A stretch of 64,000 nucleotides of DNA. It comes from Amphiscolops sp. MND2022. Taxonomy: Eukaryota. A program made the translations under genes and the position numbers. The stretch lies in assembly GCA_964187785.1 (NCBI GenBank), contig OZ076410.1, positions 52,948,001 through 53,012,000 of the forward strand, in the 5' to 3' direction. Below the pieces are notes generated by a model, which saw only the letters and a program-made list of their open reading frames with translations, made no database searches and had not been told where the DNA came from. Below are positions 36,192-38,234 of the stretch, piece after piece. How positions within the stretch are numbered: position 1 is the stretch's first letter; every line of letters begins with the position of its first letter.

Positions 36192-38234
36192 TCATGCGGG
36201 TGAAATGCGGCTGGTATTTGGGTTCCTAGGCTCCACATCGGACAATCGATCATCTAGTCCAGGGCTGGGGGGCGGTGCCAGTGCACCAGGTGGTGCAGTC
36301 TGAGGCTGTTGATGTTGCTCTCGAGGGTTCCACCACACAAGACCAAACACAATTATGGTTATGCTTAGAAGAAAGCAGCAGAAGAAAACGATTGACCCAA
36401 CCATCCACGTTACCTGTTGCGTCTGTTGCAAGATACTTTGCGTCTGGATTCCATCATCGTCTCTCGGAGCAATATCTGCTATCAAACCGAGTACGTCGCG
36501 CCAGAGGCCGGGCTGGACTACTTCCTTAACATCGCCTGGATCCTCCACTTCACAATCGTCTGCACTGGGGACCAGTTGTATGCCGTTGGGATGCTCCAAA
36601 TAGCCCGAACAAGGGGGCCTTATGACACAACTAATACAACCGGGAATGATGGAACGATGACCACTTACGCTGCTGATATTGATCCAAGTGTAGGCATTGT
36701 TGGGAGCTTCCACCAAAAACGTTGATAGCCCCAAGGAGACTGTCCTAGGTTGTGTCGGTAGCGTTTCTACCTTCTGCTCACATTGTTCTAAGACGTGCCC
36801 TTCCATTCCGGTGAATAAGCTTGACAAGCACCCTGTCTGTGGTCTAGAAGTGGTTGCGAAGTTTCGTTGACACAACTTCAGTTTGCTGTTCCCATCACAG
36901 TGATGTATGATATCCAGATCATCTGCCTCGGCATAAGTCGTCTTCTGCTGCGACACCAACAAAATGGTCTTCTTCAACTTGAACCGAGAACCCGTGGTGG
37001 TGTTTTCGATCGGCCGGAGTGTTGCTATTGCTCTGTACGTGGCATGCAACCCGTCCGTTAGTGGATGTAACGGCACCCTCCATTCGATGTGGAGGCCTCG
37101 TCCTGTTGCATGCACAGAATTTACTAGTTCGAAACTATAGTAGGACATTAGAAACTCACGTGGTATTGCTTCTCGGAGTTTGTTCTTTTCAATTTGATTG
37201 AGGATTGTGGCCAGGTCGTCTGGTGGGACCATACTCACTGGCAGTCGTCCGTGAATCAAGACCTCTAGTGCGTCGCTCATTTCACGCTCGTATGTTAGAA
37301 GGCCCATGCGGTACGAACTTACCTCGTTGATCAGCCCTGTTAGGTGATTTGTCCCATTGGCCCATTCCAGAACTGTTCGGAAGCTGTGTGCGAAGCCCCC
37401 TTTTTGGCAGTCGTTCTTCCATTTGACCAGTTCCCTCTGCCAATCCAGCATTCGGCTCATCTCACTCCGAATTTGAGCAAAGTTTGTGTCTGACTCGGTG
37501 CTGAGTAGCCGGAGGTTTTCTTTCGTTGCTTCTACTCTGCTTTCGAGTGCAAAAATAGCGTCTTGGCTGTTTTCGGACAGTTGTTTGAGTTTCTCCTTGT
37601 TGGCCCCCAACGCTGAATGCAATTCTTCTATCATTTTTGCTTTATGGTCTTTACACAAGCCAAAGACTGAAAGTATTTTGTATCCTTCTTCTCGTAGGGC
37701 GGGTTCCAATACTGTAGCGACTGCCGCACCTGCAACGACCGGTGCCCAAAACCTTGGTTGTCGAGACCAAACAGGTTCCGTGGAGTTGACCATCATTTGG
37801 GCTCGTTCTATTAGTTTCTGTCGTACTTCGTTCGTTAGTGTCATTTGGTGTTCCAGTGCTTGCATCATCTTTCTCTGGGCATCAATCCAGCCGGCCGTGA
37901 GTTTATAGTCACCACAGAGCCTTGAAATACTCTGGCTAAGACGGTCCGGAGGACTGTGGGCGCTGCCCCAGACGTATTTCGAAGTGCTGTACTTGGACCA
38001 GATCTCATCCATTTCGCTCCAATGCCCTTCGAAGATATCCTGAACTTGGGTTTTGTTAATTGTTACGCCTTCGGGGAAAGGTATAAAGAGCCACGTTTTG
38101 ACATCTGTCGTGCGGAGTACAACTGGTGTCTGGGGCACAAATATGGCACCAATCGATGTGTTGACCAGTGAGGCAGAGGTAATTCCCCACAGTGAGCAAA
38201 GAAGAAAGAAGGACAGCATGAGGCCTAAACACAT
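36192..38234 (-). CDS. env: Envelope-like class I fusion glycoprotein (~680 aa), baculovirus F/errantivirus Env-like
   Basis: Signal peptide MCLGLMLSFFLLCSLWGITSA; RQPR cleavage motif (37752-37763) followed by hydrophobic FWAPVVAGAAVATVL; heptad-repeat helix; LIHGRLPVSMVPPDDLATIL; Cys-rich region; six ectodomain N-glycosylation sequons; TM helix at ~36330-36404; Pro-rich tail. ATG at 38234 used rather than the upstream non-ATG start. Confidence 0.88.
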   Translation of the reverse strand: MCLGLMLSFFLLCSLWGITSASLVNTSIGAIFVPQTPVVLRTTDVKTWLFIPFPEGVTINKTQVQDIFEGHWSEMDEIWSKYSTSKYVWGSAHSPPDRLSQSISRLCGDYKLTAGWIDAQRKMMQALEHQMTLTNEVRQKLIERAQMMVNSTEPVWSRQPRFWAPVVAGAAVATVLEPALREEGYKILSVFGLCKDHKAKMIEELHSALGANKEKLKQLSENSQDAIFALESRVEATKENLRLLSTESDTNFAQIRSEMSRMLDWQRELVKWKNDCQKGGFAHSFRTVLEWANGTNHLTGLINEVSSYRMGLLTYEREMSDALEVLIHGRLPVSMVPPDDLATILNQIEKNKLREAIPREFLMSYYSFELVNSVHATGRGLHIEWRVPLHPLTDGLHATYRAIATLRPIENTTTGSRFKLKKTILLVSQQKTTYAEADDLDIIHHCDGNSKLKLCQRNFATTSRPQTGCLSSLFTGMEGHVLEQCEQKVETLPTQPRTVSLGLSTFLVEAPNNAYTWINISSVSGHRSIIPGCISCVIRPPCSGYLEHPNGIQLVPSADDCEVEDPGDVKEVVQPGLWRDVLGLIADIAPRDDDGIQTQSILQQTQQVTWMVGSIVFFCCFLLSITIIVFGLVWWNPREQHQQPQTAPPGALAPPPSPGLDDRLSDVEPRNPNTSRISPA

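Follow-up and report, generated by a model that had tools for sequence, protein, structure and literature searches.

Ty3/gypsy elements that encode an F-type env are already known from most animal phyla, as surveyed by Chary and Hayashi (eLife 2026; PMC13524379). The ENV of the 'ancient errantiviruses' in that survey is described with a furin site, a fusion peptide and a C-terminal ectodomain helix called 'Domain A'; acoels or other Xenacoelomorpha do not appear in its text and seven supplements, nor do the terms SGNH, GDSL and esterase in its main text. Among rotifer LTR elements, a paramyxo-like env has been reported, and in other clades a GDSL ORF3 (Rodriguez et al. 2017; PMC5408684). An esterase is also carried by the retroelement ZfL2-1, whose ORF1p is described as hydrolytic and as binding negatively charged phospholipids (Schneider et al. 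2013; PMC3905857).

The locus studied here lies in a stretch of 64,000 nucleotides (the window), and its env is the last ORF of a 13.5-kb Ty3/gypsy provirus on the minus strand, as are all features of the provirus given below. It resembles the 'ancient errantiviruses', as these are described in the survey, in gag-pol-env order, LTRs, a tRNA primer site and an F-type ENV that combines a furin site and a fusion peptide with a head, a stalk and, at the level of the family, the 'Domain A' helix; two rotifer F-type elements of the survey are likewise primed by tRNA-Asn (PMC13524379). The differences, which appear to be new, are the likely acoel host group, unlisted there, an SGNH esterase domain after the integrase and an orphan ORF between pol and env; the window copy would, moreover, fail the survey's filter for intact elements (PMC13524379). 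From the non-insect host we infer that the element belongs to the 'ancient' errantiviruses. Our main reading, to which we give a probability of about 0.8, is that the ORF is the F-type env of this provirus and that a deletion in the stalk, together with the loss of a conserved cysteine, likely leaves the window copy unable to fuse membranes.

The ORF comprises 680 codons in one open frame at 36192-38234. The preliminary description of this DNA, made from the letters of the window, had reported the frame without a strand; it is read on the minus strand, since the plus-strand reading of the same interval is ruled out by many stops. A hydrophobic, signal-like stretch covers approximately residues 1-22 (38169-38234; model helix at 2-15) and is predicted to be the signal peptide. 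The furin-like site RQPR at residues 158-161 (37752-37763), with a basic motif at or near the same place in distant families, is directly followed by FWAPVVAGAAVATVL; residues 162-181 (37692-37751) form a hydropathy peak, align behind the basic site of PDB 9w4d and are the putative fusion peptide. HR1-like long helices are predicted within residues 197-327 (37254-37646), and beta-rich, Cys-rich head domains (pLDDT ~95) at residues 368-561 (36552-37133), with eight Cys within residues 446-561. A hydropathy peak and the model place the transmembrane (TM) helix at approximately residues 611-636 (36327-36404), followed by a tail of 44 residues. Hence the signal peptide, ectodomain, single C-terminal TM and tail of a class I F-type protein are all seen in hydropathy and model, as is a basic cleavage motif ahead of a hydrophobic fusion peptide, in accordance with the earlier reading of these parts and of the Cys-rich domain. 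Two of its claims hold in part. The heptad repeat is clear at residues 285-327, where 9 of 12 a/d positions are hydrophobic against 0.42 overall, and is backed by the long model helices 197-222 and 231-327, but periodicity is weak elsewhere. The six sequons (N-x-S/T) described are those of the ectodomain, while a seventh is present in the tail.

As a single sequence, the window env has no F family match in Pfam or, by sequence, in the PDB; an Adeno_E3 match in Pfam was sub-threshold, lay on the TM and was discarded. Among 1.84 billion representatives searched, 217 homologues reached E <= 0.001, and 150 of them were listed; the profile alignment consists of the window env and 83 homologues, mostly longer (84 sequences). 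Pfam Baculo_F (PF12259) is matched by 17 of the 84 members (best 6e-17), and the best PDB match of the profile is the 'fusion protein' 9w4d/9w4c (E 1e-18), with the basic site in register; haemagglutinin, coronavirus S2 and coiled-coil rows of the same search were set aside as likely generic helix matches. An AlphaFold monomer model, built from an 84-row alignment (mean pLDDT 78, pTM 0.67), folds residues 301-560 with high confidence. When it was compared with the PDB by Foldseek, all 43 of the best matches listed were pneumovirus or paramyxovirus F proteins (best E 1.4e-8), with low TM-scores (TMq only 0.2-0.5). The BFVD matches (E 1e-19 to 1e-13) are chu-like and other RNA-virus glycoproteins, an abalone herpesvirus protein, and granulovirus and NPV F proteins, the last two at E 1e-16 to 1e-14. 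VIA-align superposes the model on RSV F over 309 residues (rmsd 6.3) with a Z of 8.9, barely above the tool's caution line. The low TM-scores and the marginal Z arise because monomer models mix pre- and post-fusion helices. Top clusters in the ESM Atlas carry Baculo_F or Fusion_gly (0.94-0.95), at a low recognition score that makes them weak evidence. Together, the profile, PDB, BFVD, VIA-align and Atlas results establish that the window ORF is an F-type class I fusion protein. The kinship with baculovirus F, errantivirus Env and paramyxo/pneumovirus F proposed in the preliminary description is thus borne out by profile and fold, including a structural match to baculovirus F and RSV F of the kind that it had suggested looking for, seen here with the monomer model.

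Likeness to baculovirus F (PF12259) and to the Env of Drosophila gypsy and ZAM extends to profile homology, fold and layout, whereas identity in structural alignments is about 12% and a Cys pair follows the fusion peptide in the window lineage. Paramyxovirus and pneumovirus F proteins (RSV, hMPV, Nipah, PIV) share the head fold and class I architecture at 7-12% identity; the window env differs from them in being encoded by a retroelement and in a membrane-proximal region that consists of three predicted helices in its full-length relative. In RT and env trees of five taxa, the env tree has long branches and one open fork.

The provirus is bounded by a 5' LTR of 1699 bp (45577-47275) and a 3' LTR of 1722 bp (33784-35505), both TG...CA, which differ by 8 substitutions in 1.7 kb, with most gaps within a CT microsatellite. 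A 5-bp target-site duplication flanks them (upstream copy 47276-47280, downstream copy 33779-33783). The 19-nt primer-binding site (45557-45575) is the complement of the 3' end of host tRNA-Asn(GTT), CCA included, and a polypurine tract (35506-35517) stands ahead of the 3' LTR. The gag ORF (44511-45500) is open, with 329 aa, a PNMA-like N-terminal part and one CCHC knuckle. By domain matches pol (39316-44607) has the order PR-RT-RH-IN-SGNH, and its RT is closest among solved structures to Ty3 (E 2e-91; MLV-type ~1e-35). These features, namely PR-RT-RH-IN order, Ty3-like RT, TG...CA LTRs, target-site duplication, tRNA primer site and polypurine tract, are those of Ty3/gypsy elements (Metaviridae), and gag, pol and an F-type env between LTRs are those of an env-carrying one. 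The copy is not intact, as a continuous RT and IN without large truncation would require: pol is broken four times, by stops at 44230-44232 and 41172-41174 and by frameshifts near 43224 and near 40330, and env is deleted. None of these stops and frameshifts is shared by the three sisters compared. Elsewhere in the genome, a tandem cluster of tRNA-Asn-like sequences is found on contig C7 from ~47.64 Mb (G000:C7); the 3' pattern of the primer tRNA has 386 genome-wide matches, and most of the first 100 listed fall in this cluster.

A genome search recovered at least about 23 close-family env loci at 72-100% identity, a lower bound from the 65 of 691 candidates that were scored. These sisters match the window residues 1-605 and 600-680 as two separate pieces. 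At 36420-36428 the window env has 9 bp of filler in place of 132 bp, a stretch that measures 131-132 bp in each of the 11 sisters fetched, so that a net 123 bp, or 41 codons, is lost in frame just before the TM. The junction has a single match in the 1.07-Gb assembly, while the stretch lost is retained even in families only ~30% identical. The filler repeats sequence from both flanks, which is a mark of end-joining repair of a break, and hence likely points to repair of a double-strand break by the host; a slip during reverse transcription is an alternative origin. In the 56 rows of a 90-row alignment that bear both marks, the last ectodomain Cys stands 87-192 residues (median 95) from the TM in every homologue, against 53 in the window env. 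The model of a full-length natural record, P0002, folds this region as three helices (pLDDT 84-94), and the deletion maps to the latter half of helix 591-606 and the whole of helix 613-631 (pLDDT 92-94). The window env retains the membrane-proximal helix 576-588 and another helix that leads into the TM, and its model reaches a pLDDT of only 58-79 over residues 561-610. The complete membrane-proximal helical region (HR2/Domain A) is therefore present in the family, as seen in P0002 and the 56 homologues, and absent from the window copy. A second lesion is at codon 185 (37680-37682), where a Cys kept in all 10 sisters covering the codon and in 43 of the 44 homologue rows that are not gapped there has been lost; its partner likely sits nine residues further on. 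The preliminary description had called the glycoprotein intact, which is refuted by the private in-frame deletion, absent from all 11 sisters, and by the loss of Cys185. It had rightly noted that the stretch between the Cys-rich domain and the TM is short and that the second heptad may be reduced; the shortness is a lesion of this copy and not a feature of the family.

That the protein still works as a fusogen, its shorter stalk being natural or tolerated, seems improbable to us, even though it has the cleavage site, the fusion peptide, HR1, the head domains and the TM, and the confident model of residues 301-560 would fit such a protein. A stalk so short is seen in none of the 56 homologues, the part lost is confidently helical in P0002, the Cys after the fusion peptide is gone, and the window provirus cannot make Pol. 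It is harder still to believe that the deletion or the pol breaks are errors of the assembly. Single-base indels, which are typical of long reads, speak for such errors, but the pol breaks include two point stops and one break of 11 bp, the deletion junction holds a 9-nt filler, and the same junction occurs in a public protein record, P0001. This record has an open frame, differs by 3 residues and likely comes from another sequence set than the window protein, which makes an assembly error unlikely as the source of the deletion. Since P0001 shares the junction but keeps Cys185, a comparison of the two sequences suggests that the deletion likely preceded the loss of the Cys.

A further alternative is that the deleted env has been domesticated by the host, for instance as a fusion-dead surface protein that blocks a receptor or poisons the trimers of active relatives. 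The window env is the only stop-free, full-length frame among the about 23 close-family loci scored, it retains signal peptide, cleavage site and TM, and P0001 is open across the same junction with only 3 residues different. The statistics of the frame nevertheless fit a dead copy. Across 677 codons evaluated, the 11 changes private to the window env comprise 9 nonsynonymous and 2 synonymous ones, with nonsynonymous sites making up 77%; this ratio is that expected of neutral decay, although 11 changes have little power against weak selection. Five frame breaks in ~6.9 kb of the element's other ORFs give a chance of ~0.23 of finding none in 2.04 kb, so an open 2-kb frame appears to be no more than chance for a young dead copy, and, the net loss being divisible by three, the frame would have remained open through chance. 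In addition, the insertion is young (8 substitutions between the LTRs over 1.7 kb) and has kept its full length instead of being reduced to an env cassette, and the window allele has lost a conserved Cys. We consequently regard domestication as very improbable, and take the window env as a clear example of how an open frame need not be an intact gene.

The shared variants, found in at least two copies, date from the time when the family replicated and tell of an earlier phase; they are not independent and the p-values are uncorrected. In env they amount to 20-21 nonsynonymous and 33 synonymous ones (pN/pS 0.19), against a pN/pS of 0.60 for singletons (Fisher p 1e-4). The corresponding values for shared variants elsewhere are 0.31 in the C-part of the integrase, 0.53 in SGNH (p 0.018) and 0.41 in the orphan ORF (p 0.016), and 0.80 and 0.71 in two non-coding controls. 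This purifying selection on shared variants suggests that the active, replicating lineage used env and needed it, and probably the SGNH domain and the orphan ORF as well. The suggestion in the preliminary description that the element may be, or may have been, infectious or able to move between cells is hence supported for the past of the family; the present copy, with its stalk lesion, lost Cys and a pol broken in four places, argues against it.

Class I fusogens act as trimers that are cleaved, insert a fusion peptide and close into a hairpin, and HR2 is needed for fusion. On this pattern, the Env of the replicating family would have entered the ER by its signal peptide, been glycosylated and trimerised, and a furin-like protease would have cut it after RQPR and exposed the hydrophobic peptide 162-181. 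The membrane-proximal helices would then have refolded onto the long HR1 helices, drawing two membranes together, and fusion likely gave particles access to adjacent cells, probably germ cells. The steps of processing, fusion and spread between cells are proposed here by analogy with class I fusogens and with errantiviruses (PMC13524379), those of Drosophila included. The window copy would have decayed neutrally after its insertion. With most of the membrane-proximal helices and one disulfide partner lost, its Env likely misfolds or cannot close the hairpin, to judge from the models, though some residual activity is possible; and as pol is broken, the provirus cannot replicate alone.

This one genome contains at least five env families. 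The four further families, at 27-32% identity, have 3, 8, 4 and 13 loci with a stop-free env of 749-797 codons, plus two shorter ones, and long open pol and env frames are found among them. One locus per family was read; each has gag-pol-env and an RT 61-66% identical to the window RT, and neither the SGNH domain nor the orphan ORF was found at these four loci. In one of the families the LTRs are 99.9% identical over the 1553 bp compared. Of the four families (loci L013-L022 and L032-L035), three possess a further ORF of 215-306 aa behind env. At one locus, an antisense frame of 320 aa lies downstream of env (L022:3242-4201, minus strand) and has a JmjC-like match below the cut-off (E 0.0012); a comparable frame is found again in another copy (L019), and it is likely cargo of the element.

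The homeodomains of the genome (1.07 Gb, ~13 large contigs) point to the host group. Among the best 30 of 82 homeodomain matches, only three are Hox-like (by our reading anterior, central and posterior), and they lie on three different large contigs. The posterior gene is Hox9/AbdB-like, and a homologue search with its exon gave two close records and generic Hox9/10 names, which point to no particular host group. A search with the central Hox-like homeobox gave no further genome match above 57% identity, where intron-split homeoboxes could be missed. A duplicated homeobox pair is presumably Cdx-like. The Hox/Cdx-like loci are on contigs C4, C5, C8 and C12 of the assembly G000 (L071, L057, L064, L067, L068). 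The Hox complement reported for acoels is exactly three genes, located on different chromosomes, in addition to Cdx (PMC5054442). From the three unlinked Hox-like genes and the Cdx-like pair we consider it likely that the host is an acoel. If so, env-carrying gypsy elements extend to the Xenacoelomorpha, early-branching bilaterians, which bears on the claimed pre-Cambrian origin of env. An 18S rRNA gene is present in the genome, and a let-7 search gave no match in the genome or in the controls.

Two components set the element apart from its env-carrying relatives. One is an SGNH/GDSL esterase domain at the C-terminal end of pol (39700-40260; Pfam PF13472, 50 bits against a cut-off of 33), in which the GDS, G, GTND and DxxH motifs, with the catalytic S, G, N and D-x-x-H blocks, are present. 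Among five sister loci it is in frame with the C-terminal motif of the integrase in two, one of them stop-free, and out of frame in three, two of which have indels of their own there; the reading frames hence suggest that it is likely fused to pol behind the integrase. The other is the orphan accessory ORF of 200 aa between pol and env (38429-39031), with a 4-bp insertion relative to three sisters. It is Trp/Tyr-rich, its shared variants carry a weak purifying signal, and it has no match in Pfam or the ESM Atlas and genome matches only in copies of the window element's own family. In a decayed subfamily on contig C10, SGNH and env occur together at about 40% identity, indicating that the pairing is old; the SGNH domain is shared by sister copies and by a 47%-identical subfamily. 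More than 100 further SGNH frames in the genome are only distantly related and may represent ORF1 esterases of LINEs.

Bdelloid rotifer TelKA, with its paramyxo-like env, and Vesta, with its GDSL ORF3, are LTR elements that likewise have an F-like env or a catalytically intact GDSL/SGNH domain, but in the account of these elements the GDSL protein is a separate ORF3 instead of an env, whereas the window element has both and its esterase is likely fused to the integrase (PMC5408684). ZfL2-1 also carries an SGNH esterase, as the ORF1 of a LINE and not at the pol end of an LTR element with env (PMC3905857). An SGNH domain with a gypsy integrase plus env, or env elements of acoels, were not found described in the literature searched, most subscription journals and Repbase lying outside its scope. 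A tentative and rather doubtful extension is that an acoel env-gypsy lineage pairs an integrase-end, motif-intact SGNH lipid esterase with the F fusogen and an orphan accessory protein, and that the esterase would bind or remodel membranes in budding or after entry. If true, this would be a retroelement with a membrane-working enzyme of its own paired to a fusogen, and the pairing of an integrase-linked SGNH with F env offers a testable case for a lipid role in retroelement particles.

Several other repeats were observed in the window. Just outside the 5' LTR, at 47584-49928, lies a MULE/Mutator-type DNA transposon, framed by 148-bp inverted repeats, whose 391-aa ORF has FLYWCH and MULE domains. 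The interval 53394-58776 holds a 1.79-kb unit in three tandem copies, ~96% alike, with minus-strand ORFs of 249-263 aa, the 263-aa ORF being without Pfam match. On the other side of the provirus, a tandem duplication of 3.07 kb (93%) and a number of long inverted repeats occur in the intervals 7279-13431 and 17341-24165; these are likely non-autonomous DNA transposons or foldback elements.
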